From contig JAFEAO010000006.1 in assembly GCA_018266375.1 (NCBI GenBank), positions 222,930 to 286,929 on the forward strand: a stretch of 64,000 bases of DNA. Reading direction: 5' to 3'. The first letter of the stretch is position 1. The number at the start of each line of letters is the position of its first letter. The notes beneath the pieces were generated by a model. That model saw nothing but the letters and a program-made list of their open reading frames with translations. It had not been told where the DNA came from and did not search any database. This document shows positions 10,253 to 27,632 of the stretch, one piece after another. This DNA is from Bdellovibrionales bacterium. Its GTDB lineage: Bacteria; Bdellovibrionota; UBA1018; CAIMNF01. Position numbers and translations under genes: made by a program.

Positions 10253-10295
10253 TAGTTATTAAGAAAAGGTGCCGAAGAGAGGATGGGAGAAGGTA

Positions 10296-11216: not shown

Positions 11217-11560
11217 TGATTACCCGTAAACACGATCAGGCGGTAGTGGTTCACGCCGGCAAAATAGCCAACACCTTTGTTTCCCGCCTCGTGGGCTGGA
11301 TCGGCAAACGTCAGGCTCATCTGGGCGAGGGGCTTTGGTTTACCAACAGCAACAGCGCACACATGTGGATGATGAGCATTCCGATCGACGTCGTTTTTTT
11401 GAGCCGCGACCGGAAGATCGTAAAAACGTTTTCGAACTTGAAACCTTGGAGGCCGCTCCCGGTGTTGTGTATTGGCGCGGATTCCATGCTAGAGCTTCCT
11501 GCCGGTACGGTGGAGACGCTGAACTTGAAGAGTGGGGAGGAATTGTGCATCGACTCGTGA
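11213..11560 (+). CDS. DUF192 (COG1430) family protein
   Basis: About 115 aa with a PIDVVFL...LELPAGT pattern typical of DUF192. ATGA overlap with tadC. Confidence 0.55.
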   Translation: MMITRKHDQAVVVHAGKIANTFVSRLVGWIGKRQAHLGEGLWFTNSNSAHMWMMSIPIDVVFLSRDRKIVKTFSNLKPWRPLPVLCIGADSMLELPAGTVETLNLKSGEELCIDS

Positions 11561-13182
11561 TCGTCGCCGGTCCTAACCGGGGCAGTTCATTCGCATTAGT
11601 GGACGGAGACAACTCGATTGGTCGTCAAATAGACAACCATATCGTGCTGACTTCCGTCAAAGTGTCGAAGCGTCACTGCACGGTATCGGTGAATCACGAA
11701 GACGTGATCCTGACCGACGCGGGTAGCACGAACGGCGTGTTCGTGAACGGTGCCTTGGTCAAAAAGCATATTTTGCGTCCGGGCGATCGCGTGAGCGTCG
11801 GTGATTTCGTGCTGGAGTTGATCCGGGTCTCCTATATGACCGGCGCGGCCCCAAGTCAGAACGCTCAACAGATGCCGATGATCCAAAGTCACGGCCAAGT
11901 TTATCCCATGAGCCAGATTGGCGGCGGCGCACTCACCGAGAACACCAATCCGGGTCTCGAAGTGCCGAAGAACGCGCTCGAGGCTCCGGACGATCCGGTT
12001 GGAAAAATTCAGTTCGCGTTTGAAAATCGTTTCATGCCGATCTTCTACGGAATGCTGCTCAAGACCGAGTTCCGCTCGCTCGTGGGCGCGCTCATGGTCG
12101 GAGTGGTCACGCTTTCGGTGGTGGGTTCGATCATGCCGATGCAGGACCTTGCGATGAAGAGTATTCAGCGCGAAGGTTTGATCCGTGCAAAAGTGGTCGC
12201 GCGCGAAATCGCGGATCGTTTTTTGCCGGCGCTCGCTAATCACGCCGAGTCCCAGATCGATCTGTCTCTCATCGAGAACGAAGAGAGTATCAAGATGGCG
12301 GCGATTACCAATACGAGTTTGCAAATCATCGCGCCGCAATCGCGAATCAATCAGTTACTTGCCGGCGGCAAGGAAGCGATCTTCGCCAACTACATGGCAA
12401 AAGAATTTAAAGAAGGCCGCGAGCGCGGTAGCGGGCTCATTATCGGCGATACCGTCGCGGTTTACGTCGAGCCAATCAAAGTTACCGATCCTCGCCAGGT
12501 CAAAACGACGGTTCCGGCGATGGTCGTGGTAGCGGTCGACTTCTCGAATAACTTGATGGCGACCGGAGAGATGGGTGTCACGTACGGCGTGGGATTCGTT
12601 ATTGCAGGGATAGCGGCGTTCTTGGCGTACCTGATTATTCTACGTTTATCGTTTAAGCCCTATGAGGTTTTAAACGATGATCTGGACCAAGTTTTGCGTG
12701 GGGAATTGCCTCGCGTAACGCATGAGTTTAAAATAGAAGAAACGGCTGCGCTTTGGAATAACATCAACGCCGCCATTCAACGCATTCCACGATTGGGAGT
12801 GGGGGGCGATTCAGCCAGCACGGGCGAAACGATCAATGTCGACTGGGACATGGAATTGGCGGCGGTTCGCGCGCTGAGCGAAGCTTCAGGGTTTGGAATG
12901 ATCGGTTTTGATCAAAATTTAACGGTGCAGGCGCTGAACCCTCAGTTCGAGGAAATCAGCGGTATGGGCATCAATGCAATCGGACAGACAGTAAATCAGG
13001 CTGCTCGAGATCAGGCGTTTGTAGCGCTGGTCAATGATCTCATGGAGCGCGTGCTCGGCTCACCTTCACGTTCGGCGCTGGATGTTTTCGAGTTCAGCGG
13101 TTTGAACTATCAGGTGGTGGCGACCGGAGTCGGCCCGGCTTCGCAATCGGGCTTGTCGTTAGTATTCAAAAAGAAGGAGTGA
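11545..13182 (+). CDS. FHA-domain membrane protein
   Basis: N-terminal FHA domain (IGRQIDNHIVLTSVKVSKRHCTV...DAGSTNGVFVNG), at least two TM segments and a large extracytoplasmic region. GTG start at 11545 with a GGGGAGG Shine-Dalgarno, overlapping the DUF192 stop. Confidence 0.75.
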   Translation: MHRLVIVAGPNRGSSFALVDGDNSIGRQIDNHIVLTSVKVSKRHCTVSVNHEDVILTDAGSTNGVFVNGALVKKHILRPGDRVSVGDFVLELIRVSYMTGAAPSQNAQQMPMIQSHGQVYPMSQIGGGALTENTNPGLEVPKNALEAPDDPVGKIQFAFENRFMPIFYGMLLKTEFRSLVGALMVGVVTLSVVGSIMPMQDLAMKSIQREGLIRAKVVAREIADRFLPALANHAESQIDLSLIENEESIKMAAITNTSLQIIAPQSRINQLLAGGKEAIFANYMAKEFKEGRERGSGLIIGDTVAVYVEPIKVTDPRQVKTTVPAMVVVAVDFSNNLMATGEMGVTYGVGFVIAGIAAFLAYLIILRLSFKPYEVLNDDLDQVLRGELPRVTHEFKIEETAALWNNINAAIQRIPRLGVGGDSASTGETINVDWDMELAAVRALSEASGFGMIGFDQNLTVQALNPQFEEISGMGINAIGQTVNQAARDQAFVALVNDLMERVLGSPSRSALDVFEFSGLNYQVVATGVGPASQSGLSLVFKKKE

Positions 13183-13188
13183 TGGAAC

Positions 13189-14223
13189 TTGGAATCCGCT
13201 AAGGTCACCCGATTTAAAGCGACCGATGTCCCTCGCCAGCAAGGCGAGGTGGGACGGATCCGTGTCATCAAAGGACCGGACAAGGGAACCACTTATGTTC
13301 TGAAGGACTCGTCGCTGGTCATCGGCCGCGGCGAAGACGTCGACGTCATGATCACCGACATCAAGGCATCACGCGCTCACGCGCGCCTCGATTACACGTC
13401 GGGTGGTTGGGTGATGAGCGACCTGGGCTCGGCGAACGGAATTTTCTTCCAAGGCGAATACATCCGCAAGTTCGGCGTCGCCAGCCATGACCACTTCACG
13501 GTGGGCGAAACGATTTTAGAGTTTTTGACTCATACCGAGTCCACTCGCGTGTTGATGGCGCCGACCCGTCCGGCTCAAGCCGTCGTGCAACAAGACCGCG
13601 CTCTCATCGCTCAGCGGATGAAAGTGCAATCGATGGCCAAAGGTCCGGAGATTACTCAAAAAGCCGGCGCCAAAAAAGAAGATCCGAAGAAGATCATGCT
13701 CTATTTGGCGCTTCTCGCCGGCGGTTACTACTTTATGTTCATGGACGATAATCCGCCTCCGAAAACCCAGGAGACGAAGAAAGAATCGAAGGTCGAGAAA
13801 GATCAAAACCGCGGGCTTGCGTCTTATCTGCCACCGGGCGTGGGTCGCGAAGCCGCGAAGAGCGCCGAACAAAGTTATTGGGAAGGTTTCCGCGAGTATC
13901 GCGAAGGCCACTACTTGCGTGCCAAGGAACACTTCGAGCTCGCTTTGCAAGTGAATCCGGCGCACGATCTCGCGAGATTTTATTTGAAGAGCGCGGACAA
14001 GGAAATTGACGACGAAGTGAAGAGGATGCTGATGGCGGCGCAGAAGGCGACCGTCGCCGGACGTCTGCGCGAGGCCAAAGGTTATTATGAAACCGCGATG
14101 CGTGCGATGTTTAACGATCGCAGCAATCCGGATTATATCGAAGCGGAGGAAGCTCTGAAAAAGCTCACGAATGAATTGACGGAATCAAACCGTGTACCCG
14201 CCTCGGGGGAGGGTAAACAATGA
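13189..14223 (+). CDS. FHA-domain protein with a TM segment and TPR-like C-terminus
   Basis: FHA motif (IGRGEDVDVMITDIKASRAHARL...DLGSANGIFFQG), TM segment IMLYLALLAGGYYFMF, then a helical repeat region. TTG start with an AAGGAG Shine-Dalgarno 8 nt upstream. Confidence 0.7.
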   Translation: MESAKVTRFKATDVPRQQGEVGRIRVIKGPDKGTTYVLKDSSLVIGRGEDVDVMITDIKASRAHARLDYTSGGWVMSDLGSANGIFFQGEYIRKFGVASHDHFTVGETILEFLTHTESTRVLMAPTRPAQAVVQQDRALIAQRMKVQSMAKGPEITQKAGAKKEDPKKIMLYLALLAGGYYFMFMDDNPPPKTQETKKESKVEKDQNRGLASYLPPGVGREAAKSAEQSYWEGFREYREGHYLRAKEHFELALQVNPAHDLARFYLKSADKEIDDEVKRMLMAAQKATVAGRLREAKGYYETAMRAMFNDRSNPDYIEAEEALKKLTNELTESNRVPASGEGKQ

Positions 14224-16532
14224 GTGCATTAATGAAACTGGAAGTATTTCAGGACGGACAGCTTCTTCAAGAAGTGCCGGTGGATGAAAACGAATTGTGG
14301 GTGGGTCGCGACCAAGGCTGCGTCATCCGGTTGGAAGACCGGGCGATATCTCGCCGGCACGCGCTTTTGAAGAGCACCGATCGCGGCATCGAGTTCGAAA
14401 AGAAATCGAAGTTCGGTTGGGTAAAGGTCAACGGGCAGGACGCAACCCAGATTACCTTGAAATCGGGCGACCGTGTGGAAATGGGTCCGTATGAAATCCG
14501 GGTATCGGGTGCCGATGCTCCGGCGGGTGCAAGCGCGTCCGCGGATGTGATTCAAATGGCTGCTCCTGCCAACACTCCGAACGGAATGACCGTCGGTCCT
14601 GTTGTCGAATCTCCGATCCAACTCAACGATCCGCTAACCGGCGAACCCGTTCCGGGCGTCGAAGCATTGCCAGCCATCGAAATTCCGGCGTCGAATCCGC
14701 CCGAGCACACCAAGGTGCTCGGTCAAACGGCTGAAATCGCAGTCCCAAGCAATGAAAACGGCAATGAGGTCGGCCTCGACGTTCAGAAGATCGAAAAGAC
14801 AAGCGCTGGCGGAAACACCGGCGCGATGGATTACGGCGCGGTGTCGAGCGACGGCGCGACCAAAGTGTTCGGTCGCAAGGATCCGATCAAAGCGATTCTT
14901 CAATTTAACGACGGTCAAGCCAACGTTTCTCAGTATGAACTGAACGACAACGAAATCGCGATTGGCCGTTCGCAGCAGTGTCACGTTGTTCTCGAAGATA
15001 AAAAGTCTTCGCGTAAGCATGCGATCATCCGCCGTGAAGGCGATAAGTATTACTTGAAAGACTTGGGCTCCGCTAACGGTACCCAAGTCAATGGCTCGCG
15101 CGTGGACGACGTCGAACTTCAGAGCGGCGACCAAATCCAAATCGGCGAAACCGCATTCGCATTCAAAATCGTGCAAGCCGACTATGAAATCAAAAAGGAA
15201 GGTTTCATCGCGGTTCCACAGCACGAGATGCCTCCACCGCCGCCAGTCGGCTCGCATCGGGACGCGAACGTGATCGAGTCGTTGGACTATATTCCTCCCG
15301 ATGTGGGCAATGCTCCGACTCCGCAGCCGGAATTCTCAGCTCCGAAAGCCGAAAAGAAATCGTTGATCGGTAAAGCACTCGATCGCTACCGCGCGATGAA
15401 TACCCGCCAGCAGATCATCTGGGGTATCCTGGTTCTCGCCAGCCTGTACGTACTGATGATGGACGAGGAAGGCGATCATCAGCCGGCACGCCTCAACACC
15501 GGCCTCGTTCAAAAGTCGAAAGCGACCAAGCCGGGCGATAGAAAACCGGGTGAAGGCCAGAGCTTCGACGCGTTGACCGCCGAGCAAAAACGTTACATCG
15601 AGACTCAGTATCAGCTCTCGTTCGATCTTTATAAAAACCGCGAGTACGATAAAGCGCTTCTCGAAGTGGGCAAGATATTCAGTCTCGTGCAAGACTACAA
15701 GAACGCACGCGAGATCGAAGCGTTTTCCCGCGAAGGTAAACGTAAGCTTGAAGCTCAGGAAGAAGAACGGAAACGTAAGGAGCAGGAACGTCAAAGCCAG
15801 CTCAAACTTCAAAGCTTGCTCGAGCAAGCCGACATGCTCATGAGCAAAAAGCGATTCCACGAGGCCGAAGCGCTCTTCCCTGAAATCGAATTGATTCAGC
15901 CGGAGAACGCGGCGGTAAACGAATGGCGTAAGATCATCATGGCCGAAGGCGAGCGTCTCGATCGTGAACGCGAAGAGCAAGAGCGTCAGCAAGCGCTCGT
16001 CCGCCAGGGTTGGTCGAAACTCCAACGCGCGGTCGATTACAAAAAGGATCACGACTATCAAACCGCACTCGACGAACTTAACGAGATTGACGAGCTCGGC
16101 GTTCAAGATAGAAAATTGAAGAACGCGGTCCGGGACGAAGATTCCGCGATCCGCGGTCGCATCGCGGCTGAACGCGATCCGCTCCTCGTTCAAGGTAAAG
16201 AACTCGAGCAAAGCGGACAGCTCGCCGAAGCTTACAAGGCTTACGAGAAAGCGCATACTATCGATCCGGACGACAAGGTGTCGGAACAGGGCATGGCCCG
16301 TATTCACGGTAACCTGACCGCCCGGGCGAAGGCTCTATATATAGAGGGCGTCTTTGCCGAAAGCTATAACGATCTGGAGACGGCGGAGCGCAGTTACCGC
16401 GAGATCCTGAGCGTTGTGCCCAAGGACGACGAATATCACGCCAAAGCGGAACTCCGCTTGAAGCGCGTGACTTCATTCCGTAGACCGGCGGGCTCGGCGA
16501 GCAACGCTGGCTCCGGGGAGTCGCCTCAATGA
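14220..16532 (+). CDS. Tandem-FHA (two FHA domains) membrane protein with a long coiled-coil/TPR-like C-terminus
   Basis: FHA 1 (VGRDQGCVIRLEDRAISRRHALL). FHA 2 (IGRSQQCHVVLEDKKSSRKHAII...DLGSANGTQVNG). TM segment IIWGILVLASLYVLMM. Charged coiled-coil region (EERKRKEQERQSQ). ATGA overlap with the upstream gene. Confidence 0.8.
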   Translation: MSALMKLEVFQDGQLLQEVPVDENELWVGRDQGCVIRLEDRAISRRHALLKSTDRGIEFEKKSKFGWVKVNGQDATQITLKSGDRVEMGPYEIRVSGADAPAGASASADVIQMAAPANTPNGMTVGPVVESPIQLNDPLTGEPVPGVEALPAIEIPASNPPEHTKVLGQTAEIAVPSNENGNEVGLDVQKIEKTSAGGNTGAMDYGAVSSDGATKVFGRKDPIKAILQFNDGQANVSQYELNDNEIAIGRSQQCHVVLEDKKSSRKHAIIRREGDKYYLKDLGSANGTQVNGSRVDDVELQSGDQIQIGETAFAFKIVQADYEIKKEGFIAVPQHEMPPPPPVGSHRDANVIESLDYIPPDVGNAPTPQPEFSAPKAEKKSLIGKALDRYRAMNTRQQIIWGILVLASLYVLMMDEEGDHQPARLNTGLVQKSKATKPGDRKPGEGQSFDALTAEQKRYIETQYQLSFDLYKNREYDKALLEVGKIFSLVQDYKNAREIEAFSREGKRKLEAQEEERKRKEQERQSQLKLQSLLEQADMLMSKKRFHEAEALFPEIELIQPENAAVNEWRKIIMAEGERLDREREEQERQQALVRQGWSKLQRAVDYKKDHDYQTALDELNEIDELGVQDRKLKNAVRDEDSAIRGRIAAERDPLLVQGKELEQSGQLAEAYKAYEKAHTIDPDDKVSEQGMARIHGNLTARAKALYIEGVFAESYNDLETAERSYREILSVVPKDDEYHAKAELRLKRVTSFRRPAGSASNAGSGESPQ

Positions 16533-17278
16533 GTTCTAGCGAGTCCTGGGTCAAAACGCGTCTTCCGTTCAAATGGGTCGAGGGATTCCAGCTTCAGGGC
16601 GGACTCCCGGTCCAAGAGGATTACTTCGAGGTCAATGCCGATCGCGGGATTTTTATTTTGGCCGATGGCTTTGGCGGCGGCGCGGGAAAGTACGCAGCCG
16701 AAGTCGCGGTGAAAGCCGTACGCCAATTCTTGGAACAGGAGGCGGGCGACTTGGATGCGACCCTTCCGTTCGAGTTGCGGCCGTATTTTTCGCTCGCGGG
16801 AAACGTACTTTTCAACGCGATTTCTTACGCTAATCAAAAACTCATCGCCGCTAACAAAGGCAAAAACCCGCTGAACTCGGGCGGAACTTCTTTGATCGCG
16901 GGATACCTCGAGGGGCGCTTGCTCTCGGTCGCGAACGTCGGCACCTGCAGTTTGTTTTTATCTCGTGACGGCAAGAGCAAAGAAATTTTGGTCCCGCGCT
17001 CGCTTGCAAAACAAGTGAACCCGTTCGCGGACAGCATGGTAGAAGGCGCCGGCGTGCCTTTGATGAGTCTCGGAACCGCTCGCCAGCTCGAGCCCGAGAT
17101 CGTGGAGATCGAAGTTCGCGAAGGCGACCAGCTTTGTTTTCAATCGGCGCCGGTCACTGCCGAACTTCGCGATCAGTTGTTTCAATTGAATTCCAACAAG
17201 GGATTAAGCCAAATCATTGACGCTCAAGATACGGCGGGCATTCAGGGCAACGCTAGCCTGATTTGGACGGCATTCTAA
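16529..17278 (+). CDS. PP2C-family Ser/Thr protein phosphatase
   Basis: PP2C motifs (FILADGFGGG, GGTSLIAGYL, VANVGTCSLFLSRDG), about 250 aa like Stp/PrpC phosphatases. ATGA overlap with the FHA gene. Confidence 0.75.
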   Translation: MSSSESWVKTRLPFKWVEGFQLQGGLPVQEDYFEVNADRGIFILADGFGGGAGKYAAEVAVKAVRQFLEQEAGDLDATLPFELRPYFSLAGNVLFNAISYANQKLIAANKGKNPLNSGGTSLIAGYLEGRLLSVANVGTCSLFLSRDGKSKEILVPRSLAKQVNPFADSMVEGAGVPLMSLGTARQLEPEIVEIEVREGDQLCFQSAPVTAELRDQLFQLNSNKGLSQIIDAQDTAGIQGNASLIWTAF

Positions 17279-17320
17279 ATACACTCTAAATATGTAATAA
17301 TTAGAGTGAGGGGGAAATCT

Positions 17321-17563
17321 GTGTTTAGGGCATTTTCTCGGAAATTGAAGGTGATTTTACACCGCCGTAAGAAGCGTCGCTTGGGCAACCAAGGGCAAGC
17401 TTTGGTGGAGTACATCATTCTCCTCACGATCGTGATGGGCGTGGTGGCCTATTTCCTGAGTAAAATGACGGGATCCTTTGATATGACGACCGCCAAATAC
17501 GGGGGAGTAATCGAGAAGCAGATCCGAACAGGCTCTGCTCCGGCAACGGTATGGAATCGATAA
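17321..17563 (+). CDS. flp: Flp-family prepilin
   Basis: Basic leader, then G/QALVEYIILLTIV (Flp G-XXXXEY processing motif) and a hydrophobic helix. GTG at 17321 with a GAGGGGG Shine-Dalgarno (the ORF track begins at an upstream GTG at 17306). Confidence 0.6.
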   Translation: MFRAFSRKLKVILHRRKKRRLGNQGQALVEYIILLTIVMGVVAYFLSKMTGSFDMTTAKYGGVIEKQIRTGSAPATVWNR

Positions 17564-17844
17564 TTGCTAAACGCAGGAAGACGCAGTCCGGCCAAGCCGT
17601 ACTCGAGTACATCCTGCTCTTGGCGATCATCGTGTTTTTATATTCGCTGGTTTTGAACTCGATCTCCGGCTCGAACGGCTTCGAGAACATGAAAAAGCCG
17701 CTGACCAAGGACTTCAAGTATACCTATCAATACGGTCATCCTGAGGCGAGGGGTCAAGAAGATGGCGGTCCCAAGTTTATCCCGCAGCATCACGACGGGG
17801 CCCAAAACTTCAGAATTTTCATTAATCCGCCGATTAATGAATAG
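17551..17844 (+). CDS. Flp/TadE-like prepilin (second pilin)
   Basis: SG/QAVLEYILLLAIIVF motif after a basic leader. About 97 aa. Confidence 0.55.
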   Translation: MESIIAKRRKTQSGQAVLEYILLLAIIVFLYSLVLNSISGSNGFENMKKPLTKDFKYTYQYGHPEARGQEDGGPKFIPQHHDGAQNFRIFINPPINE

Positions 17845-17846
17845 AG

Positions 17847-18461
17847 ATGAGCCGTAAAAAGTATAAACAAATCAACGACAAATGCGAAAGCCGGGCGAGC
17901 AAGACACACTTGCGTTCGAACGCACTCGCGCGCTCACAAAGCGGACAAGCGCTGATCGAGTTCGTTCTCGGACTGATGATCGTCATCTCGTTTTTCTTTT
18001 TCTACGTGAAGATGGCGGCGGTGTTCGCCGTCGGAAATTATATTCACTACGCAACCTTCATGGCCGCACGCGCCTACTCATCCGGCGCAGGCTCGCCTGA
18101 CGAGCAAACCGCGAACGCCGAAGCGGTGTTGCAAAAAATGGTCGCCGGCCGTTTTAAAACTCTTTTGAAGCCGTCGTCGGATTCGGGCGGCTCGGTTCCC
18201 GGTGCAACCGTCGGCCCGGGGCCGTGGTATCAAGACGATCCGGCCCAAGATAATTGGAACCAAGGCGTCACATACTCGTATTCGACGAAAGTCGCCCTCT
18301 ACCCGTGGAGTAAAGGCAATCAGGCGATCACCATGAAACTCACCAGCGAAAGCTGGATGCGCCGTGAAGATACCGAAACCGAATGTAATGCCAAAAAAGG
18401 CCGCATTCAAGGCGGGATTCGTCTGCAAAACATTTCTGTGGAGTGGGACAATGGTTGCTAA
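17847..18461 (+). CDS. tadE: TadE-like pseudopilin
   Basis: SG/QALIEFVLGLMIVISFFFF TadE-type N-terminus. About 200 aa with a Gly/Pro-rich middle region. Confidence 0.65.
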   Translation: MSRKKYKQINDKCESRASKTHLRSNALARSQSGQALIEFVLGLMIVISFFFFYVKMAAVFAVGNYIHYATFMAARAYSSGAGSPDEQTANAEAVLQKMVAGRFKTLLKPSSDSGGSVPGATVGPGPWYQDDPAQDNWNQGVTYSYSTKVALYPWSKGNQAITMKLTSESWMRREDTETECNAKKGRIQGGIRLQNISVEWDNGC

Positions 18462-19020
18462 GACAATAACCCACGCTCAACGTATTCAAGACAATTCGGG
18501 ACAAAGCATCCTCGAAGTGGTGTTCATTCTCCCGTTCCTGTTTTTGTTCGTTGGCATGCTCTACAAGATCAATATGGCGATTCAGATGGCGATCAACAAC
18601 ACGCAGTATGCTCGCTCGCAAATTTACGTGCTGACCGCGAATTCTCCGGAGTACCCGCGTTACGCGTTCCGTTTCCTCGAAAAGGACTTGTTCGGGATGA
18701 ACAACCAGGATCGGATGGTTCTCGGCGTGTCTGATCCGAAGGCGATCAGCCAAGCGGCTTCAAACGACTCGTCGATCGAACCGTTGCCGCAAACGACCAA
18801 GATCAATCGCGCGGGCACGACCGTCAAAGGCAGTAACGAACGCGGTGAAGTGAATCTGAGAAATGAAATCCGGGTTCGAAATACGTCCGCGATTTGCACG
18901 CAGTTGAACTCGGTCGGTTCGAAGACTCCTTGGAGTTCGTCGAACGTGGTGGGTTTGAAATCTAAGCGTTGGCCGTTTGGCCAAACAGTTTGCCAGTACA
19001 GTGGCAAGAAGGAAGGTTAA
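18451..19020 (+). CDS. TadE/TadF-like pseudopilin
   Basis: SG/QSILEVVFILPFLFLFV motif. Start moved to MVAKTIT (18451), which has a GGAG Shine-Dalgarno. The ORF-track start at 18364 overlaps tadE. Confidence 0.6.
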   Translation: MVAKTITHAQRIQDNSGQSILEVVFILPFLFLFVGMLYKINMAIQMAINNTQYARSQIYVLTANSPEYPRYAFRFLEKDLFGMNNQDRMVLGVSDPKAISQAASNDSSIEPLPQTTKINRAGTTVKGSNERGEVNLRNEIRVRNTSAICTQLNSVGSKTPWSSSNVVGLKSKRWPFGQTVCQYSGKKEG

Positions 19021-19022
19021 CG

Positions 19023-19862
19023 ATGAATAGTCGCGCGATGACACTCTCATTATTCATGGCCGGTGTGGCGGTGTTCTTTGTCATGAGTTCGGTCTCCAGC
19101 ATCGAAGACGAAGCCAAAAAAAAGTTCGGCGACGACGTCACGGTCCTGGTCGCGAAGAACGACATCAAAGAGATGGACTCGATCTTGGACGGGATGATCG
19201 AACCGCGCGTGGTCCCACGTCGTTTCGTCGAGCCGTCGGCGATCGCGTTCAACACCCTCGTCAAAGAAGACTCCCATGACTACGCGATGGAAACCAAGCG
19301 CATCATCGGTAACGTCGCGATCGTCCCGATCAAAAAGGGCGAGCAGCTGTCATTGAATAAAATCACCGAACCAAGTATGCGTACGGGTCTTGCGCCACAG
19401 GTGAGCCCCGGCAAACGTGCGATCTCCGTCAATGTCGATGAAACCTCGGGCGTCGCCAAGCTCATTAAGCCAGGCGACCGCGTGGATATCATCGCGGTGA
19501 TCGATCCGGGCAACGCGGTCGGTGGCCGCGACAACAAGGTCGCGAAGACGCTTTTCCAGGACATTGTTGTATTGGCGGTCGGACGCAATATTACCAACAA
19601 CCTCGCGCGTAAGATCGAACTTGACGCGATCACTGGCAAGGCCAAAGTCCGCTCGCTTACCGAGTTCGACGGATTTAGTTCCGTCACCTTGGAAGTGGAT
19701 CCGAATCAGGCTCAACTCTTGGCTGCGATCACGACGAGCAATATGAACCGTTTGGTGTTTACTCTACGGAACAACGACGATACCGACCGCACGAACTTGA
19801 TGTCCGTGCGTGCCGTTGATGCTTTGAGCGACGGATTGCGTATCCCGGCAGGAGGCAGATAA
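19023..19862 (+). CDS. cpaB: Flp pilus assembly protein CpaB/RcpC
   Basis: N-terminal TM anchor, then SAF/CpaB domain (IAVIDPGNAVGGRDNKVAKTLFQDIVVLAVG). Start MNSRAM at 19023 with an AAGGAAGG Shine-Dalgarno. Confidence 0.8.
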   Translation: MNSRAMTLSLFMAGVAVFFVMSSVSSIEDEAKKKFGDDVTVLVAKNDIKEMDSILDGMIEPRVVPRRFVEPSAIAFNTLVKEDSHDYAMETKRIIGNVAIVPIKKGEQLSLNKITEPSMRTGLAPQVSPGKRAISVNVDETSGVAKLIKPGDRVDIIAVIDPGNAVGGRDNKVAKTLFQDIVVLAVGRNITNNLARKIELDAITGKAKVRSLTEFDGFSSVTLEVDPNQAQLLAAITTSNMNRLVFTLRNNDDTDRTNLMSVRAVDALSDGLRIPAGGR

Positions 19863-21568
19863 TGAGAAACTTGCCGCTTTACCTCATCCCGAGCTTTATC
19901 GTTGCGTCGTTAGTTCTCGTGGGTGGCAAAGCTCACGCGCAAGAAGCGGGGGTACCGACAGTTGAAGCTGCGCCGACAACGGAGTCGGGTGAAGCCGAAA
20001 AGGGTGACGTCACTAAACCAAAGTCCCGCCGCAAAGTCGTCGAAACGAGAACCGGCGCGTCTAGATACACGAATGACCAAACCGAGCGCGAAGCCGATCA
20101 TCGTCCGGAGCTGGTTGCCGTTGGTGTCGATAAACTCATCGACATCGATCCGGCAATTAAGATCGGTGATCGCCAGGGTTCGATCTGGGAATCGAATAAA
20201 AACGTCGCATTGGTGCAGCTGGTGTCGGTCGGTAACAGGAAGCAGCTCATCTTGAAAGGCGTCGGCGAAGGCTCGGCGAACATTTTCATCCGGGATCAAG
20301 CGGGCAACGTCAAAATCGTGATCGACGTCACCGTCGCCAAGCAAAATATCATTAAGTACTACGAGCGCCTCAAAGAGAAGCTTAAGGAAGTCGAAGGTAT
20401 CACGATCGCGATCGAAGACCAAAAGGTCGTCATTCGCGGTGAAGTGTATACTGTGAACGATTACGGCACGATCGTCAACGAGATCGCCGAGAAGACCTAC
20501 GGGGATGCGGTGATCAACAAGGCGACGATCTCGACCGTATCTCTAAACCTGCTTGCTAAGAAAATCGCCGAAGACGTGCAAGTCTTCGCTCCGACCGTGA
20601 CCGCGACCGCATTGAACGGCCGTGTGATCATGGGCGGTTCGGTCGAGAGTGCCGCGGTTCGTGACCGTGCTCTCAAGCGCGCCGAGTATTACATTCCGGT
20701 GATTCGCGTGAGCGATCCGGTGGCATCGGCAACTAACATCGAAAAGAACGAGAAATCGCTCCAAATCATTCAAAACGACATTCAAGTCAATCCTCCTCCG
20801 CCGAAACGTGATTCGAAGCTCGTACGCCTGAGCCTTTACTTCGTGGAGTTGAGTAAGGACTTTTTGAAATCTTTTGGTTTCAAATGGCAGCCGGGATTTA
20901 CCGCGGATCCACAGATCTCGATCGGGAGCGCGACGGATGGGACGACATCGACCAGCAGCTCGGGCGGTTTTACCTTTTCGGGAACGCTTTCGAGTCTCTT
21001 CCCGGCGTTGAACGCGCCGCCTTCGAACGCGGGCTACGGCCGGATTTTGAAACAAGCCAATATTATCGTGAAGAGCGAGCAACAAGGTACGATTCGGGAC
21101 GAGCAAACCATTCCGACTCAACAGCTCGGTCCAAACGGAACCGTCGGCGCGGGTACCCCCGTCACGGTCGGCTTTTTGGCGATCATCACCCCGACCATCC
21201 TGCAAGGCCAGGACGTTGACCTCAACATCAATTTGACCCAGACTAACGCGCTTGCAAAGCAGCTGAACAATCAACCGTATACCGCAACTCACAAAGTTGA
21301 AACGCGTTTGTATCTCAAGTCAGGCGAAGTGGCAGCAGTCGCGGCGGTCAATAACCAGGACGTTTCGACGTCGTTTAACCGCGATGATCCGAACGCCGGA
21401 AGCTTCGGCGCGAGCACGAAGCCGCTCTTTACTTTGCAACGTTCAAAAAGTTCGTCGAACAAGCGCGGACAGTTCGTCGTGTTCGTTTCGCCGCAAATTA
21501 TCGATAGCGCGTCGGAAGGAACGGAAGATCTCAAAAAGAACTTCCGCATGCCGACCTCAACAAGATAG
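19862..21568 (+). CDS. cpaC: Flp pilus secretin CpaC/RcpA
   Basis: Signal peptide. N-domain repeats. C-terminal secretin domain (KPLFTLQRSKSSSNKRGQFVVFVSPQII). Confidence 0.85.
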   Translation: MRNLPLYLIPSFIVASLVLVGGKAHAQEAGVPTVEAAPTTESGEAEKGDVTKPKSRRKVVETRTGASRYTNDQTEREADHRPELVAVGVDKLIDIDPAIKIGDRQGSIWESNKNVALVQLVSVGNRKQLILKGVGEGSANIFIRDQAGNVKIVIDVTVAKQNIIKYYERLKEKLKEVEGITIAIEDQKVVIRGEVYTVNDYGTIVNEIAEKTYGDAVINKATISTVSLNLLAKKIAEDVQVFAPTVTATALNGRVIMGGSVESAAVRDRALKRAEYYIPVIRVSDPVASATNIEKNEKSLQIIQNDIQVNPPPPKRDSKLVRLSLYFVELSKDFLKSFGFKWQPGFTADPQISIGSATDGTTSTSSSGGFTFSGTLSSLFPALNAPPSNAGYGRILKQANIIVKSEQQGTIRDEQTIPTQQLGPNGTVGAGTPVTVGFLAIITPTILQGQDVDLNINLTQTNALAKQLNNQPYTATHKVETRLYLKSGEVAAVAAVNNQDVSTSFNRDDPNAGSFGASTKPLFTLQRSKSSSNKRGQFVVFVSPQIIDSASEGTEDLKKNFRMPTSTR

Positions 21569-21584: not shown

Positions 21585-23744
21585 ATGGGTCACATTATCG
21601 CGATCGTCGGAGGCAAAGGTGGAGTCGGGAAGAGCGTATTCGCCGCTAACATGGCGATTGCGTATCAACTCAACTTCAAGCAGCGCTCTCTGATTGTAGA
21701 TCTGGATTTCCAATCCTTGGGCGATCAAAACATCATTTTAGGCATGAACCCGCCTAAGAACATCGTCGATTTGACCAAGACTCAGGTCCCTCAGTGGGAT
21801 CCGAAGACGCTTGCGCCTTTCATGATGAACCATCAGCAGGGGTTCAGCTTCATCGGCGCGCCTCGCGAGGCGGCCGTCGCTAAAGACATCGACCTTGACG
21901 GCCTCGGAAAGTTCTTCAAAGCAGCGACTCAGATTTTTCCGTGGGTGATCGTGGACTGCGGCAGCGGTACCGAGCCTCATGCGTTGAAAGCGCTCGAGCA
22001 AGCGACGTTGATCTTCGTCGTGACCACACCGGATGTGATCGTGGTCAATCAAACCCGCCGGATTATGTCGAAGATCCAGGAACTCCTGTTTCCGCCGGAA
22101 ATGATTCAAATCATCATCAACCGTTACTCGCAAACCAACTTGATTAACCCGCAGATGATCCAAAAGAACTTGGGTAAAAGCCCGTTCTTCGCGATCCCGG
22201 AAGAAGCCGCGACCTGCGAGGCGTCCCTCGCGAAGAGTCAGCCGTTTACCATCGCTAACCCGGGCGCGCCGATCTCGCGCGCGTTCTCCGACCTTGTCCG
22301 CCGCATCGATCAAGCCAAGATGCTCGAACAATTGGCGAAGCTCAACAAACCGACCGGTACCGCAAAGAAGCTCGAAGTCATTCAAGGTGGAGCGAGTGCC
22401 AGCATTATGCCTGCCCCAACCGACGGTGGAATCATTTCGCGCTCGCGTTCGGCTCCGGTCGATCCATGGACCGCGATGAAGTTACGCGTGCACCGCGCGC
22501 TTATCGACGTCGTCGACATGAAGAAGATGAACGCCGATATGAACGATCCTCGTCAGAAGGACGTCTTGCGCGCGAAGACCACGAAAGCGATCGTCGACGT
22601 TCTGAATAAAGAAGATTTGGCTCAGTTGTGCCCGACGCGCGAACACCGCGCTCAACTCGTCAAAGAGATCTTGGATGAAGCCTTGGGCTTAGGACCGCTC
22701 GAAGATTTGCTCGCCGACGATACCGTGACCGAGATCATGGTCAATGCGCGCGACCAGATTTACGTCGAGCAAGGCGGCCGCCCCGGCCTCTCGAAAGTAA
22801 CCTTTACCAGCGAACAGCAAATGATGAACGTGATCGAACGGATCGTGACTCCGCTCGGGCGCCGCGTGGATGAAAAAACTCCGTACGTCGACGCTCGTTT
22901 GCAAGACGGTTCGCGGGTGCACGTGATCATTCCGCCACTCGCGCTCCGAGGCCCGACGATTACGATTCGTAAGTTCCCTAAAAAACGGATCGTAGCGACC
23001 GACCTCGTGAAGTTCGGTTCGATGACTCAGGAGATTTCGGATTTTCTCCGTGCCTGCGTCGAAGCCAAGCTCAACATGATCGTGTCGGGTGGTACCGGTT
23101 CAGGTAAAACCACTTTGCTGAATGTATTGTCGAACCATATTCCCGCGAACGAACGGATTATCACCGTCGAGGACGCGGCCGAATTGCAGCTCGGCCAGGA
23201 CCACGTCGTGCGTCTGGAGACTCGTCCGAAAAACATCGAAGGCGAGGGTGAAGTTTCGATTCGTGATTTGATTAAGTCGTGTTTGCGGATGCGTCCTGAC
23301 CGGATTGTGGTCGGTGAGTGTCGGGGCGGCGAAGCCCTCGACATGTTGCAAGCGATGAACACCGGTCACTCGGGGTCGCTCACTACCGTCCATGCCAACA
23401 ACCCACGCGAGTCGCTTGGCCGCCTTGAGACGCTCGTGATGATGGCGGGTTTGGGTCTTCCGCTAAAAGCGATTCGCGAGACGATCGCGTCCGCGGTTAA
23501 CGTAGTCGTGCAACAATCACGTTTGGCGGATGGATCGCGTAAGGTGACCCATATTTCGGAAGTCGTCGGTATTCAAGGCGACACAATCACGCTTCAAGAT
23601 ATTTTCGTGTTCAAGCAAGAAGGTTTGGATAAAAACCGTAAGATCATCGGCCGTTTCGTGCCGACGGGTTTCATCCCAAAATTTATCGAAGAGATGGAAG
23701 CAAAGGGCATGAAGGTCTCACGCGGCCTCTTCGTGGCCAAGTAA
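21585..23744 (+). CDS. Fused TadZ/CpaE-like (ParA/MinD-type) ATPase and TadA/CpaF secretion ATPase
   Basis: N-terminal deviant Walker A IVGGKGGVGKS (ParA/MinD fold, about 260 aa). The C-terminus is a full CpaF/VirB11-type ATPase: Walker A GGTGSGKTT, Asp box, Walker B, His box (GECRGGEALDMLQAMNTGHSGSLTTVHAN). One continuous 719-aa ORF. Confidence 0.85.
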   Translation: MGHIIAIVGGKGGVGKSVFAANMAIAYQLNFKQRSLIVDLDFQSLGDQNIILGMNPPKNIVDLTKTQVPQWDPKTLAPFMMNHQQGFSFIGAPREAAVAKDIDLDGLGKFFKAATQIFPWVIVDCGSGTEPHALKALEQATLIFVVTTPDVIVVNQTRRIMSKIQELLFPPEMIQIIINRYSQTNLINPQMIQKNLGKSPFFAIPEEAATCEASLAKSQPFTIANPGAPISRAFSDLVRRIDQAKMLEQLAKLNKPTGTAKKLEVIQGGASASIMPAPTDGGIISRSRSAPVDPWTAMKLRVHRALIDVVDMKKMNADMNDPRQKDVLRAKTTKAIVDVLNKEDLAQLCPTREHRAQLVKEILDEALGLGPLEDLLADDTVTEIMVNARDQIYVEQGGRPGLSKVTFTSEQQMMNVIERIVTPLGRRVDEKTPYVDARLQDGSRVHVIIPPLALRGPTITIRKFPKKRIVATDLVKFGSMTQEISDFLRACVEAKLNMIVSGGTGSGKTTLLNVLSNHIPANERIITVEDAAELQLGQDHVVRLETRPKNIEGEGEVSIRDLIKSCLRMRPDRIVVGECRGGEALDMLQAMNTGHSGSLTTVHANNPRESLGRLETLVMMAGLGLPLKAIRETIASAVNVVVQQSRLADGSRKVTHISEVVGIQGDTITLQDIFVFKQEGLDKNRKIIGRFVPTGFIPKFIEEMEAKGMKVSRGLFVAK

Positions 23745-24910: not shown

Positions 24911-25789
24911 GTGATGAACTTCGCAGCTCCGCACTGGCTACTTGCGATCGTGGTATTTATCTCCGCGCTTTTGGTAGCCTACCAATTTTCGGGCCGTATC
25001 TTGGATTGGATTCGCTTCCAATCCATCGGCACGCGCGACTACATCGCCGACAAGTTGCAGTTGATGATGATGGACATCCCGCCTGAACGGATTTTGATCG
25101 GGCAGGTGAGCTTAAGTCTGGGCTTAGGGATGCTGGTGTTCCTCCTGTGTTTGCCGAATTTCGCGGTAGGCGGCATTTTCGGCGTGATTTCGATGTTAAT
25201 CGGGTGGATTCTTCCTCGACCGATCATCGATATCATGTACGGCAGCCGGTGCACTAAGTTTGTCGAGCAGATGGTCGACGGCTTGGGCCTCATGTCTAAC
25301 GGCATGCGCTCGGGACTTTCGGTCGTGCAAGCGATGGGTCTCGTCGCGCAAGAGATGCCGAATCCGATTCAGCAGGAGTTCAATCTGATTTTGAGTCAGA
25401 ACAAACTCGGCGTTTCTCTCGAAGAGGCTTTCTTGAATCTTTCTCGCCGGGTTGTCGCCGACGAGGTCGAGATGTTCGTGACGTCCGTAAATATTTTGAA
25501 AGAAACCGGCGGTAATTTGGCGGAGACGTTCGATACGATCACGACCTTGATTCGCGAGCGGATCAAGGTTGAAGGAAAAATCAAAGCAATGACCGCCCAG
25601 GCTTTCTGGCAGGGCATTATCTTGATGTGCGTACCTCCGTTTATGGCGACCGTACTCAGTCAGTCCGATCCTGAACTCATGCGTCCGATGTTTACGCACC
25701 CGCTCGGTTGGGTGATTTTGACGGTGGTTGTGATCCTCGAGGTCGCGGCGTTTTTTATGATTCGGAAAGTTACAAAAATCGACGTATAA
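24911..25789 (+). CDS. tadB: Flp pilus assembly protein TadB (T2SS F domain)
   Basis: GspF-like domain flanked by TM helices. Preceded by a 275-bp AT-rich divergent promoter region. Confidence 0.8.
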   Translation: MMNFAAPHWLLAIVVFISALLVAYQFSGRILDWIRFQSIGTRDYIADKLQLMMMDIPPERILIGQVSLSLGLGMLVFLLCLPNFAVGGIFGVISMLIGWILPRPIIDIMYGSRCTKFVEQMVDGLGLMSNGMRSGLSVVQAMGLVAQEMPNPIQQEFNLILSQNKLGVSLEEAFLNLSRRVVADEVEMFVTSVNILKETGGNLAETFDTITTLIRERIKVEGKIKAMTAQAFWQGIILMCVPPFMATVLSQSDPELMRPMFTHPLGWVILTVVVILEVAAFFMIRKVTKIDV

Positions 25790-25867: not shown

Positions 25868-27556
25868 ATGAAGATTCTATTGGCATTGGGTGTATTAACT
25901 TCGATTTCAACCGCCTATGCGCGCGCGGATGTGAGTCTGCGTAACGGTAACTTTTACGTTACTTTCCGCGATATTTCTTATCCTGGCGGGATCGAACCCA
26001 AGTTCGAACGTGTTTATAACTCCAAATCCGATTTTCACGGTATCTTCGGCTTCGGTTGGGGAACCGAGTATGAAACCTCGCTTGCGATCGATTCCGACGG
26101 CAGTATCGTCGTCAACGAGTACGGCGGCGGGGCTGAAAACCGTTTTACGTCGAAGAATGCCAAGCCCGCTGATCTTGAAAAGGGCGTGAATGATCTCGTC
26201 GAAGCCGCGAAAAAGAGCGGTGTCGTGACAACGAAAGCCCAGATCGACGATTTTAGAACTCATTTGAAAACCGATTTTGAATTCCGTTCGAGACAATACG
26301 GCATTTACTCGAATAAAGGTCTCGTCGCCAAGAAAGCGGTCCGGGAAGGGACGCAGTTTACTTCGACCCGCTATCTGTACCAGTACATCACTAAGGTCAA
26401 AGGCGGTTACGTCCGCGTGATGGAAGGCGGCGTGATTCAAAAATTCAACGAGGCGGGCAGACTCGTTCAGATCATGGATCGTAACAAAAACTTCGTGAAC
26501 TTCAGTTACGATAAGGGCAATAGACTGGTGCAGCTCGTGGACAACCAGAACCGCAAAATGATCCTAAGCTACAATACCCAGGGCTTGGTCGAGAAAATTG
26601 TCGGCGAGAGCGGTAAAAATACGGCTTACAAATACACTAAAGAAGGTCTTCTGAGTTATTGCAGGGACGATGTCGGCGAAGAGAATACTTTTGCTTACAC
26701 GACGGACGCCTACCGGAACTTGTCCGAGATCGGTTATCCGAAAGAGAAAGACTCTAAGGGTAAGCCCAAAAAGATGTCCATCTCTTACTACGGCTCGGAT
26801 AAAAACACCGGCGTAAAATCGGTGACCAATCCGGATGGAAGCGTGAACGAATACGAATATTACAAGGACCCGAAAAATCCGGACTACTACGGAGTGCGCG
26901 TGTTCCTGAAAGATTCTTCGGGCGCGCGGATCAGCGACGCAAAATATGAATACTTTTCAAAACCTCGTCCGGGCGGCGAGGTCTTTACCCAAAAGATGAT
27001 TTCAACCGTCGATGGCGACAAAACTGAAACCTATTACGACTTGAAAACCGGATTTCCGGCTAAAGTCGTGAACGGCACTCGCGTGACGACGATGGCGTAC
27101 GACGTAAAAGGCCGTCTTGTTAAAAAGGTCACCCCGATCGAAACCACCGAGCTCAGTTACGATGCTAAAGTAGGGAAGGTCAATAAAGTCGTACGCAAGC
27201 TAAAGAGCGGAACCGTGCTCTGGAGCCAGTTCGAATACGAGGCATCGACCGGCAACTTATCTCTCGCCAAAAATAACGAAAAGAAGCAAGTGAAGTTGAT
27301 CCACGACACCGCCGGAAATATCCGCGCGCTTATCGATCAGAGCGGCCGCAAACTTACGTTTAAGTACAACGAGCTTTCAAAGCCGGTTGAGATCTCGGAT
27401 GCGAAGCTCGGTACCGTGAAGGTGATGTATAAAAACAGTGGCGAAGTCGATAAGATCGAGAGTAACGGCGGCAGTAACGTCGCGACCGAGGTCATGCGAG
27501 CGCTTCAGGGTTTGCTTGATATCACTGCTCCGGCGGGTGTGAGTTTAGGTTTGTAA
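25868..27556 (+). CDS. Secreted YD/RHS-repeat protein
   Basis: Signal peptide MKILLALGVLTSISTAYARA. Several YD repeats (NFVNFSYDKGNRLVQLVDNQNRKMILSYNTQGLVEKIV, MAYDVKGRLVKKV, LSYDAKVGKVNKV). No toxin tail. Confidence 0.6.
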   Translation: MKILLALGVLTSISTAYARADVSLRNGNFYVTFRDISYPGGIEPKFERVYNSKSDFHGIFGFGWGTEYETSLAIDSDGSIVVNEYGGGAENRFTSKNAKPADLEKGVNDLVEAAKKSGVVTTKAQIDDFRTHLKTDFEFRSRQYGIYSNKGLVAKKAVREGTQFTSTRYLYQYITKVKGGYVRVMEGGVIQKFNEAGRLVQIMDRNKNFVNFSYDKGNRLVQLVDNQNRKMILSYNTQGLVEKIVGESGKNTAYKYTKEGLLSYCRDDVGEENTFAYTTDAYRNLSEIGYPKEKDSKGKPKKMSISYYGSDKNTGVKSVTNPDGSVNEYEYYKDPKNPDYYGVRVFLKDSSGARISDAKYEYFSKPRPGGEVFTQKMISTVDGDKTETYYDLKTGFPAKVVNGTRVTTMAYDVKGRLVKKVTPIETTELSYDAKVGKVNKVVRKLKSGTVLWSQFEYEASTGNLSLAKNNEKKQVKLIHDTAGNIRALIDQSGRKLTFKYNELSKPVEISDAKLGTVKVMYKNSGEVDKIESNGGSNVATEVMRALQGLLDITAPAGVSLGL

Positions 27557-27632
27557 GTGTTTGTTTTTAAATGATATTAATTTAATAAACTCAAAATTAC
27601 ATTTGAGATACACTAGTCAGGAGAGGTTCTGG

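Follow-up and report, generated by a model that had tools for sequence, protein, structure and literature searches.

In Tad systems, TadZ is the Tad-specific positioning factor of the ParA/MinD type (PMC13170226), and a role in polar localization and placement of the machine has been shown only for TadZ of Caulobacter and Aggregatibacter and for TadZA of Bdellovibrio bacteriovorus (bioRxiv 10.64898/2026.07.08.737194; PMC13170226). The last of these was described by Tesseur, Denise, Santin and Laloux (July 2026) as an "atypical TadZA fusion ATPase" that is without a receiver domain, uses its TadZ domain and linker to bind the polarity hub RomR, and shows a localization biased to the invasive pole; depletion of TadZA stops both prey attachment and invasion (bioRxiv 10.64898/2026.07.08.737194). 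The preprint also cites, as its reference 13, a previous prediction of the Bdellovibrio fusion. The genes bd0113-bd0109 of Bdellovibrio constitute the "hit" locus, or tad locus 1, in which Bd0109 has been called RHS/YD-like (PMC3818213).

Here we analyzed a 64,000-nucleotide stretch of DNA (the window) from an uncultured Bdellovibrionales bacterium, which carries a gene of the same type, tadZA. With a probability of roughly 0.88, we consider this gene to be the orthologue of TadZA (Bd0111) from B. bacteriovorus tad locus 1. The TadZ-TadA fusion is real and was read correctly in the original prediction, but it is already known and is the normal form of the motor in Bdellovibrio-type predators. 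The novelty which that prediction implied is thereby lost, as the same fusion in the same locus has been studied experimentally under the name TadZA (bioRxiv 10.64898/2026.07.08.737194).

The tadZA gene and its two ATPase halves

The following features were assigned within tadZA, with the basis of each assignment in parentheses.

21585..23744, + strand: tadZA, a fusion of a TadZ/CpaE-like ParA/MinD ATPase and a TadA/CpaF motor ATPase (intact ORF, Pfam, NCBIfam)
21585..22349, + strand: TadZ-like ParA/MinD domain, residues 1-255, receiver-less (PDB matches, PDB profile, nearest unfused relatives)
21609..21635, + strand: deviant Walker A GGKGGVGKS, residues 9-17, both lysines present (invariant in 36 homologues)
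22290..22358, + strand: conserved helical segment after the ParA domain, residues 236-258, DLVRRIDQ..ML.QLAKLNKPTG (36-homologue alignment)
22359..22439, + strand: hypervariable Gly/Ala/Ser/Pro-rich linker of ~27 residues, residues 259-285 (36-homologue alignment)
22440..23741, + strand: TadA/CpaF motor, residues 286-719, comprising an N-terminal helical region, an N-terminal domain and the ATPase domain (CpaF match, T2SSE)
23088..23114, + strand: TadA Walker A GGTGSGKTT, residues 502-510 (translation; invariant in 36 homologues)
23298..23318, + strand: TadA Walker B region DRIVVGE, residues 572-578 (D572, R573, I574, V576, G577 and E578 invariant)
23361..23399, + strand: TadA His box TGHSGSLTTVHAN, residues 593-605 (T593, G594, H595, H603 and N605 invariant)

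The reading frame runs without interruption from an ATG at 21585 to a stop codon at 23742-23744 and encodes 719 amino acids, and an NCBI protein from a metagenome-assembled genome was found to be 100% identical to the product. With an intact ORF and with both halves assigned by Pfam, NCBIfam and PDB searches, the proposal that a single 719-aa polypeptide joins a ParA-type ATPase to CpaF stands, and the motifs on which it was based were all recovered (IVGGKGGVGKS at residues 7-17, GGTGSGKTT and the His box at the positions listed above). Conservation was assessed in an alignment of 36 TadZA homologues with 71-92% identity. A full-length AlphaFold2 model built on the same 36 sequences was unusable (mean pLDDT of 45, pTM of 0.32) and the packing of the domains could not be read from it, probably because the alignment was shallow.

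In the C-terminal half, residues 293-706 align with residues 80-486 of the Caulobacter CpaF chain (501 aa in full length), and the CpaF structures 8rkd, 8rjf and 9e24 match at E=2e-125; this end-to-end alignment with a solved protein agrees with the original prediction of a complete CpaF domain. Pfam T2SSE (PF00437) covers residues 367-647 (2.4e-64, 217.8 bits, cut-off 24.9), and NCBIfam TadA/VirB11 models match residues 335-658. TIGR03819 scored 332-334 bits and thus fell below its cut-off of 373, a miss that is not decisive, since the model describes a subfamily, TadA associated with conjugal transfer.

Between the two ATPases, the helical segment holds V238, R239, Q243, L250, L253, K255, P256 and G258, all invariant or nearly so in the 36 homologues, and its amphipathicity is moderate (hydrophobic moment about 0.5-0.6). 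A membrane-targeting helix of the MinD/CpaE kind was considered at this position; residues 242-254 are moderately amphipathic at most, and no such helix is claimed. The linker that follows differs among the homologues in both length and sequence.

Most bacteria carry tadZ and tadA as two neighbouring genes, frequently with a gap of just 0-40 nt (51 recovered loci), and one wrong base could merge them; furthermore, the window derives from a metagenome-assembled genome. A stop codon or frame lost in sequencing or assembly could therefore produce a fused gene, a worry that was raised together with the original prediction. However, at least 120 independent clusters with 71-92% identity to the window protein, drawn from four assembly sources (NCBI, JGI, ENA and Logan), each encode a product of 714-730 aa with both domains, and the complete isolate genome of Bdellovibrio sp. 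HCB288 likewise encodes a fused TadZA. In the 36 homologues, indels in the linker are always in frame and are flanked on both sides by conserved sequence, and the fused protein of B. bacteriovorus has already been expressed and tagged (bioRxiv 10.64898/2026.07.08.737194). An artefact that merged tadZ and tadA is in effect refuted by these conservation data, and we assign it a negligible probability.

Assignment of the N-terminal domain

The ParA domain begins at residue 2-3 of TadZA, and the N-terminal atypical receiver domain is absent. The stop codon of rcpA (TAG, 21566-21568) lies 16 nt ahead of the tadZA ATG, with a GAAGG ribosome-binding site in the gap, and there is therefore no space for an N-terminal receiver domain; the predicted lack of the CpaE-type receiver-like domain is thus borne out. 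Pfam gave CbiA/ParA-type matches to residues 3-216/252 and NCBIfam MinD models match residues 3-252, while residues 1-244 match MinD (1g3q, 1e-13) and a ParA-family structure (3ea0, 4e-14) in the PDB, as expected if the N-terminal part belongs to the ParA/MinD-family ATPases. A profile of TadZ-like domains retrieved the same structure 3ea0 at 5e-35 and MinD at 1e-24 to 1e-26. The sole curated CpaE-type model in the libraries, TIGR03815 for the actinobacterial CpaE homologue, scored 49-52 bits and did not reach its cut-off of 154; the NCBIfam MinD models scored 69-73 bits, above TIGR03815 and under their own cut-offs (>200). Curated models do not assign the N-terminal domain to the TadZ family.

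An alternative is that TadA independently took up another kind of ParA-type domain, such as MinD or FlhG, whose function is not comparable to that of CpaE/TadZ. That MinD models and structures outscore the only curated CpaE-type model speaks for such a capture, as do the MinD-like full KGGxGK[ST] signature, the missing receiver domain and the absence of the solved Eubacterium rectale TadZ from the best 60 PDB matches of the domain profile. Yet when 1.8 billion representative proteins were searched without bias, the nearest unfused relatives were not MinD proteins of 260-270 aa but proteins of ~400 aa, matched at approximately residues 140-385. Two of them, P0152 and P0159, were scanned and consist of Response_reg and a ParA-type domain, the architecture of CpaE/TadZ. 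In 51 other genomes with split loci, distributed over many phyla, the TadZ-like domain also aligns to the product of the gene that immediately precedes tadA, and this order of tadZ followed by tadA is exactly what the loss of an intergenic stop codon would fuse. Of these 51 separate TadZ proteins, 33 have the second Walker A lysine replaced and 18 keep the GK[ST] lysine, as the fused domain does. We regard an independent capture as unlikely.

Alternatively, the TadZ-like domain could be degenerate and nucleotide-independent, merely lengthening the disordered N-terminus of TadA. Low ATPase activity has been reported for canonical TadZ (quoted in PMC6668835 and PMC13170226), and the N-terminal domain evolves much faster than TadA, with identities within the phylum of 35-66% versus 58-79%. 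Against this, the predicted nucleotide-binding residues are invariant across the 36 homologues (G9-S17, including K11 and K16, as well as D39, D41 and D124), which is not expected of a decayed site, and a mere scaffold appears very improbable. The reading of the N-terminal half as a TadZ domain is thus preferred over both alternatives. No separate tadZ gene was found in the tad locus of the window. A second ParA-like gene (46763-47794, - strand) was considered as a separate TadZ and rejected: the tad locus ends ~19 kb before it, and its similarity to the TadZ domain is weak (22% identity over 143 residues).

The tad locus and its relatives

The gene order of the locus is tadC, three FHA genes, PP2C, two flp-like genes, two tadE/F-like genes, rcpC, rcpA, tadZA, tadB, RHS/YD and a small secreted ORF. 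Apart from tadZA, the features are as follows, and L001-L006 denote the six Bdellovibrionota loci recovered for comparison.

10269..11216, + strand: second platform gene, tadC-like (Pfam T2SSF, 2.6e-15)
11335..17278, + strand: interval between tadC and the pilin genes, with three FHA-domain genes, of which two also encode TPR repeats, and then a PP2C phosphatase gene (Pfam FHA, TPR, PP2C_2)
17306..19020, + strand: four pilin-like genes, two Flp-like (17306-17563 and 17551-17844) and two TadE/F-like (17847-18461 and 18364-19020) (motif)
18969..19862, + strand: rcpC/cpaB, counterpart of bd0113 (Pfam RcpC; TIGR03177 138 bits, cut-off 71)
19862..21568, + strand: rcpA/cpaC secretin, directly upstream of tadZA, counterpart of bd0112 (Pfam Secretin; syntenic in L001 and L003-L006)
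24911..25789, + strand: tadB inner-membrane platform protein, counterpart of bd0110 (Pfam T2SSF; syntenic in L001 and L003-L006)
25868..27556, + strand: RHS/YD-repeat protein, at the position of Bd0109 in the hit locus (Pfam RHS_repeat and DUF6531; NCBIfam YD repeat)

Bdellovibrio sp. HCB288 and other Bdellovibrionota have the same gene order, rcpC-rcpA-tadZA-tadB-RHS, which also agrees with the published assignments of bd0113-bd0109. Synteny from rcpC to the RHS gene is complete in L001, L003, L005 and L006, all of which include the RHS/YD gene, and in L004 it extends as far as the end of the contig. In the window, 1.17 kb with an antisense papain-like protease gene parts tadZA from tadB, whereas the two genes are adjacent in the relatives. 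The products of the tadC-like gene and tadB share 21% identity. Each of the pilin-like genes encodes a prepilin-type G/QA(L/V)(V/L/I)E(Y/F) motif followed by a hydrophobic helix; they gave no Pfam match and were recognized by the motif alone, and homologues are found at the equivalent place in L001, where the FHA/PP2C block is also located upstream of the tad genes. For the small ORF at 27561-27884, a candidate counterpart of Bd0108, tblastn found no homologue in the related loci and only its position is conserved.

A survey of homologous loci, as suggested with the original prediction, showed the fusion in all six Bdellovibrionota loci, each with both lysines in the deviant Walker A, while all Myxococcota loci recovered have an FHA-TadA in its place. 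In a neighbour-joining tree of the TadA domain, the window and L001-L006 form one clade (100 of 100 bootstraps). TadZ-TadA fusions were found as well in Omnitrophota, a WOR-3 bin and two unclassified bins. A single origin of all these fusions was rejected, as the fused proteins were monophyletic in 0 of 100 bootstraps. Nor was a grouping of the fused with the FHA-type motors, to the exclusion of the split-gene type, adopted; its support (41/100) is a weak hint only.

Tentatively, the fusion might be an ancestral, lineage-wide trait of the Bdellovibrionota which has re-arisen independently in Omnitrophota, the WOR-3 bin and the two unclassified bins, some of these other lineages being suspected of living on or attacking other cells. 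In the same proposal, the fused and FHA-TadA (KilF-type) motors would constitute a class of Tad systems in which the motor bears its own targeting or signalling module, and the rapid pole-to-pole dynamics that have been reported for TadZA would rest on the fully intact MinD-like Walker A of the Bdellovibrionota proteins. Taken as a whole, we consider this proposal possible and rather doubtful.

Proposed function and comparison with known systems

Facts established for both ATPase families, together with the work on B. bacteriovorus, suggest how TadZA may operate. The TadA part would form a hexameric motor beneath the TadB/TadC platform and power extension and retraction of the Flp pilus, while the six tethered TadZ domains, predicted to bind ATP and to be capable of pairing as ParA/MinD-type dimers, would serve as a positioning module linking the motor to a polarity factor. 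This factor is RomR in B. bacteriovorus, and its own degenerate receiver domain may replace the one missing from TadZA. The covalent link would set one positioning domain per motor subunit, and the outcome would be a Tad machine operating at the prey-facing pole.

Public records name TadZA simply "TadA", "CpaF" or even "MinD", which hides the positioning factor inside the motor gene, and as a result tad-system finders may call TadZ missing. The main practical worth of the window gene accordingly lies in annotation. TadZA offers a compact model for tying a pilus motor to cell polarity in prey invasion, in which the fusion swaps the usual receiver domain for an external partner (RomR in B. bacteriovorus). 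Work on the B. bacteriovorus protein is already under way; the window adds a divergent orthologue and comparative context rather than a new phenomenon.

The closest known system is that of B. bacteriovorus, which has the same arrangement of receiver-less TadZ domain, flexible linker and TadA, and the same neighbours in tad locus 1 (rcpC-rcpA-tadZA-tadB-RHS/YD gene). The L006 protein, congeneric with B. bacteriovorus, has the Walker A GGKGGVGKS as in the window, and a prepilin peptidase is missing from the tad locus in both organisms. Compared with Bdellovibrio sp. HCB288, the window protein is about 48% identical overall, with 58% in the TadA part and 35% in the TadZ part; it is therefore an assumption that the window protein retains the RomR contact. 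The two loci differ in that a tadC-like gene and the FHA/PP2C block are located directly upstream in the window, within 11 kb, whereas tadC of strain HD100 is at a separate locus, and in the antisense papain-like protease gene, which splits tadZA and tadB in the window but not in B. bacteriovorus.

Systems with separate CpaE/TadZ and CpaF/TadA, as in Caulobacter crescentus, Aggregatibacter actinomycetemcomitans and E. rectale, contain the same two ATPase modules with a gene order equal to the order of the fusion, but as two polypeptides instead of one. Many separate TadZ proteins have a variant Walker A, KGGxGx[ST], in which the second lysine is lost, whereas the window protein keeps both. In the in situ model of the Caulobacter machine, six CpaE dimers were fitted round one CpaF hexamer, a ratio of 2:1 (PMC13170226). 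The fusion would give 1:1, and the "obligatory 1:1 coupling" of the original prediction is thus a fair inference from the covalent link, at a ratio different from that of the Caulobacter model. MinD from Pyrococcus furiosus (1g3q) and Archaeoglobus fulgidus (1hyq) shares the fold, the deviant Walker A with both lysines and the size of ~250 residues. Unlike MinD, the TadZ-like domain is encoded outside a min/division locus, has tad-linked proteins as its nearest relatives in large databases, and is followed by a linker and TadA, with no clear membrane-targeting helix.

A further parallel is KilF of the Myxococcus xanthus Kil system (Seef et al. 2021; PMC8460266), likewise a Tad-type motor of a predator with an extra N-terminal module on TadA. 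The TadA domains share 55-57% identity, and the Kil locus is rich in FHA-domain proteins, as the window has three FHA genes and PP2C beside its tad genes. The fused module of KilF is, however, an FHA domain and not a ParA/MinD domain, and Kil assembles at sites of prey contact instead of at the pole (PMC8460266).

The fused tadZA gene and its Tad locus

The gene under study, tadZA, is an uninterrupted single ORF that lies in a Tad locus. This locus and a stand-alone ATPase gene elsewhere in the window comprise the following features:

10269-11216, +, tadC-like gene (T2SSF)
11335-16532, +, three FHA-domain genes, two with TPR repeats
16529-17278, +, PP2C phosphatase gene
17306-17844, +, two Flp-like genes
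17847-19020, +, two TadE/F-like pilin genes
18969-19862, +, rcpC/cpaB
19862-21568, +, rcpA secretin gene
21585-23744, +, tadZA, 719 codons
23769-24635, −, papain-like protease gene, antisense to the Tad locus
24911-25789, +, tadB
25868-27556, +, RHS/YD-repeat protein gene
27561-27884, +, small ORF with signal peptide
46763-47794, −, stand-alone ParA/MinD-like ATPase gene, 343 aa

The core order rcpC-rcpA-tadZA-tadB-RHS was also found in Bdellovibrio sp. HCB288 and further Bdellovibrionota loci, and equals bd0113-bd0112-bd0111-bd0110-bd0109 of B. bacteriovorus HD100, where the tad operon lies beside the host-interaction ('hit') genes (PMC5430801, PMC3818213). The FHA/PP2C/pilin block upstream of the core is also present in the Bdellovibrionota locus L001. 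A separate tadZ is absent from the window's Tad locus; the stand-alone ATPase, weakly similar to the TadZ domain, is encoded ~19 kb beyond the locus end with no tad genes nearby.

The original prediction of a ParA domain and a CpaF motor in one ORF was borne out by the translation, which contains both Walker A motifs (IVGGKGGVGKS, residues 7-17; GGTGSGKTT, residues 502-510) and the His box (TGHSGSLTTVHAN, residues 593-605). CobQ/MinD/ParA-type Pfam models cover residues 3-216/252 and T2SSE covers residues 367-647 (2.4e-64), while the NCBIfam matches are to MinD models (residues 3-252) and TadA/VirB11/TrbB models (residues 335-665). When the halves were compared separately with solved structures, residues 293-706 matched Caulobacter CpaF (E=2e-125) and residues 1-244 matched MinD 1g3q (1e-13) and the ParA-family ATPase 3ea0 (4e-14). 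The CpaE receiver domain is missing, as had been predicted: since the rcpA stop (TAG, 21566-21568) and a GAAGG ribosome-binding site sit just before the ATG at 21585, the protein opens directly with the ParA fold. The chain has two complete nucleotide-binding modules with a flexible linker between them. The AlphaFold2 model had a mean pLDDT of 45, too low in confidence to show how the domains pack.

Several neighboring genes were also noted. The protease between tadZA and tadB belongs to the papain family (Peptidase_C1); its N-terminus resembles that of a lipoprotein, and it has a spacer rich in Pro, Thr and Ser. Its gene looks like an insertion splitting the tadZA-tadB pair, because tadB follows within about 100 nt in the relatives checked (L001 and L003-L006; 3 nt in L006, congeneric with Bdellovibrio). 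The tadC-like product, a second T2SSF platform protein, is 21% identical to TadB; its gene immediately precedes the FHA genes, so that tadC and the main tad locus are linked in the window. The FHA/PP2C genes (11335-17278) lie between tadC and the pilin genes, and one of the three FHA proteins has two FHA domains plus TPR repeats. The RHS/YD-repeat protein carries a DUF6531 domain, and its gene and the small ORF (probable start M25, nt 27633) occupy the positions of bd0109 and bd0108 in the Bdellovibrio hit locus. No sequence homologue of the small ORF was detectable in related loci; L006 has a 96-aa ORF at that position. Two large ORFs (405 and 878 aa; 32430-36280, +), downstream of lipoate/2-oxoacid dehydrogenase genes, gave no Pfam match at E<=1e-5.

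Conservation of the join and identity of the N-terminal domain

That the fused ORF is an artefact is unlikely. Nearly all of the best 120 clusters (NCBI, JGI, ENA and Logan assemblies; 71-92% identity) have both domains and a length of 714-730 aa, and tadZA is likewise one gene in the complete isolate genome of HCB288. In an alignment of 36 of these homologues, the ParA-domain Walker A (G9-S17) and D39, D41 and D124 are invariant, and a conserved helical segment (residues 236-258) is followed by a Gly/Ala/Ser/Pro-rich linker (residues 259-285), which varies in sequence and length but always in frame. The TadA part that comes next is almost unchanged among them from about R286 onward. NCBI contains a protein of 100% identity whose source is a 'Bdellovibrionales bacterium' MAG and whose label is only 'TadA'. 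The 1156-aa ENA protein P0049 (1218 bits against tadZA, many P-loop families, no identity or coverage value listed) may be a TadA in tandem or with some other extension.

Residues 1-300 were searched against 1.8 billion representative proteins. Seven of the first ~25 matches are full-length (718-777 aa; match starting at about residue 3); the remainder are shorter (many <250 aa), and in most of them too the match begins at the very N-terminus. Below E≈1e-28 the matches are mostly ~400-aa proteins aligned at about residues 140-385, and the two scanned (P0152 and P0159) have the receiver-plus-ParA architecture of CpaE/TadZ. Among species-representative genomes, ~60 loci match tadZA over its whole length, and an ORF check showed the match to be divided over two adjacent genes in 51 of these, a ~400-codon gene with the ATPase domain at about residues 140-400 and then a ~450-codon tadA. 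As this counterpart stands directly before tadA, homology and position support the assignment of the N-terminal domain to TadZ/CpaE without its receiver. Three caveats attach to this assignment. The curated models do not confirm TadZ (TIGR03815 reaches 49-52 bits where the cut-off is 154; MinD models score higher in NCBIfam), and a profile of the fused domains matched 3ea0 (5e-35) and MinD (about 1e-24 to 1e-26), with E. rectale TadZ not found among the top 60 PDB matches. In addition, the complete KGGxGKS is kept in 6/6 Bdellovibrionota loci, but the second lysine is replaced by T, A, S, C, R or V in 33 of the 51 separate TadZ proteins. Given the split-gene counterpart, a captured ParA other than TadZ is nevertheless unlikely. 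It is also unlikely that the TadZ-like domain is a dead scaffold.

Distribution and origin of the fusions

By sequence comparison, the window's tadZA is a divergent orthologue of Bd0111/TadZA (identity to a Bdellovibrio-genus protein is 48% over the whole chain, 35% for TadZ and 58% for TadA). The original reading was right but the feature was already published, because the same fusion, lacking the atypical receiver domain, has been described in B. bacteriovorus in a preprint that also cites an earlier prediction (its reference 13) and does not discuss the distribution beyond that species (Tesseur et al., bioRxiv 10.64898/2026.07.08.737194).

We surveyed the best 80 loci from species-representative genomes, in which MAG taxon labels are the depositors' own and some are doubtful. 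The same fusion, for which a survey of Bdellovibrionota and Myxococcota had been proposed, was found in 6/6 loci of the former (L001-L006), while the Myxococcota loci have KilF-type FHA-TadA fusions (PMC8460266) instead. Single-ORF TadZ-TadA fusions were also identified in two Omnitrophota MAGs (L011 and L014, both rcpC-secretin-tadZA loci), one WOR-3 MAG (L024) and two unclassified MAGs (L007 and L076). The Omnitrophota secretins upstream of tadZA (L011 8131-9954; L014 696-2366) bear a C-terminal TonB_C domain, an unusual secretin architecture. Other long TadA genes without an adjacent tadZ were FHA-TadA of KilF type in 10/10 tested. FHA-TadA occurs in L022, L028, L029, L035, L044, L045, L053, L056, L058, L070 and L077, with phylum labels, some doubtful, that are not only Myxococcota but include Gammaproteobacteria, Lentisphaeria, Spirochaetaceae and others.

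In a neighbor-joining tree of 74 TadA domains (100 bootstraps), the window and L001-L006 grouped in 100/100 replicates, the two Omnitrophota proteins in 98/100, and all fused proteins together in 0/100; fused and FHA-type proteins (with L048) separated from the split-gene type in 41/100. This pattern suggests that the two genes fused once in an ancestor of the Bdellovibrionota lineage and separately in other lineages. It is a tentative and rather doubtful proposal, of moderate interest if true, that Tad machines with a targeting module (TadZ or FHA) on the motor make up a recurrent class.

Proposed mechanism and comparison with known systems

In B. bacteriovorus, binding to the polarity hub RomR requires the TadZ region and linker, which also suffice for it. 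TadZA-msfGFP shuttles quickly from pole to pole and favors the invasive pole in a RomR-dependent manner, and cells depleted of tadZA-tadB no longer attach stably to prey or invade it (bioRxiv 10.64898/2026.07.08.737194). CpaF is a bidirectional hexameric motor (PMC11300603). By analogy with both, the TadA part would form a hexamer under TadB/TadC and drive Flp pilus extension and retraction. ParA/MinD ATPases form ATP-sandwich dimers; the six tethered TadZ domains would likewise bind ATP and may pair, and, judging from B. bacteriovorus, would tether the motor to a polarity factor. The receiver missing from TadZA may be supplied by RomR, which has a degenerate one of its own.

In B. bacteriovorus, tadC is encoded away from the tad locus (in HD100 at a locus of its own), the tad locus lacks a TadV peptidase and FHA/TPR genes are nearby (bioRxiv 10.64898/2026.07.08.737194); the window differs in having its tadC-like gene linked to the main tad locus. 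The FHA/PP2C block is reminiscent of the Kil clusters of Myxococcus, which are rich in FHA genes. The predicted obligatory coupling would follow from the covalent link in one chain, which gives a fixed TadZ:TadA ratio of 1:1, whereas in the in situ model of Caulobacter a single CpaF hexamer is fitted with six surrounding CpaE dimers (PMC13170226).
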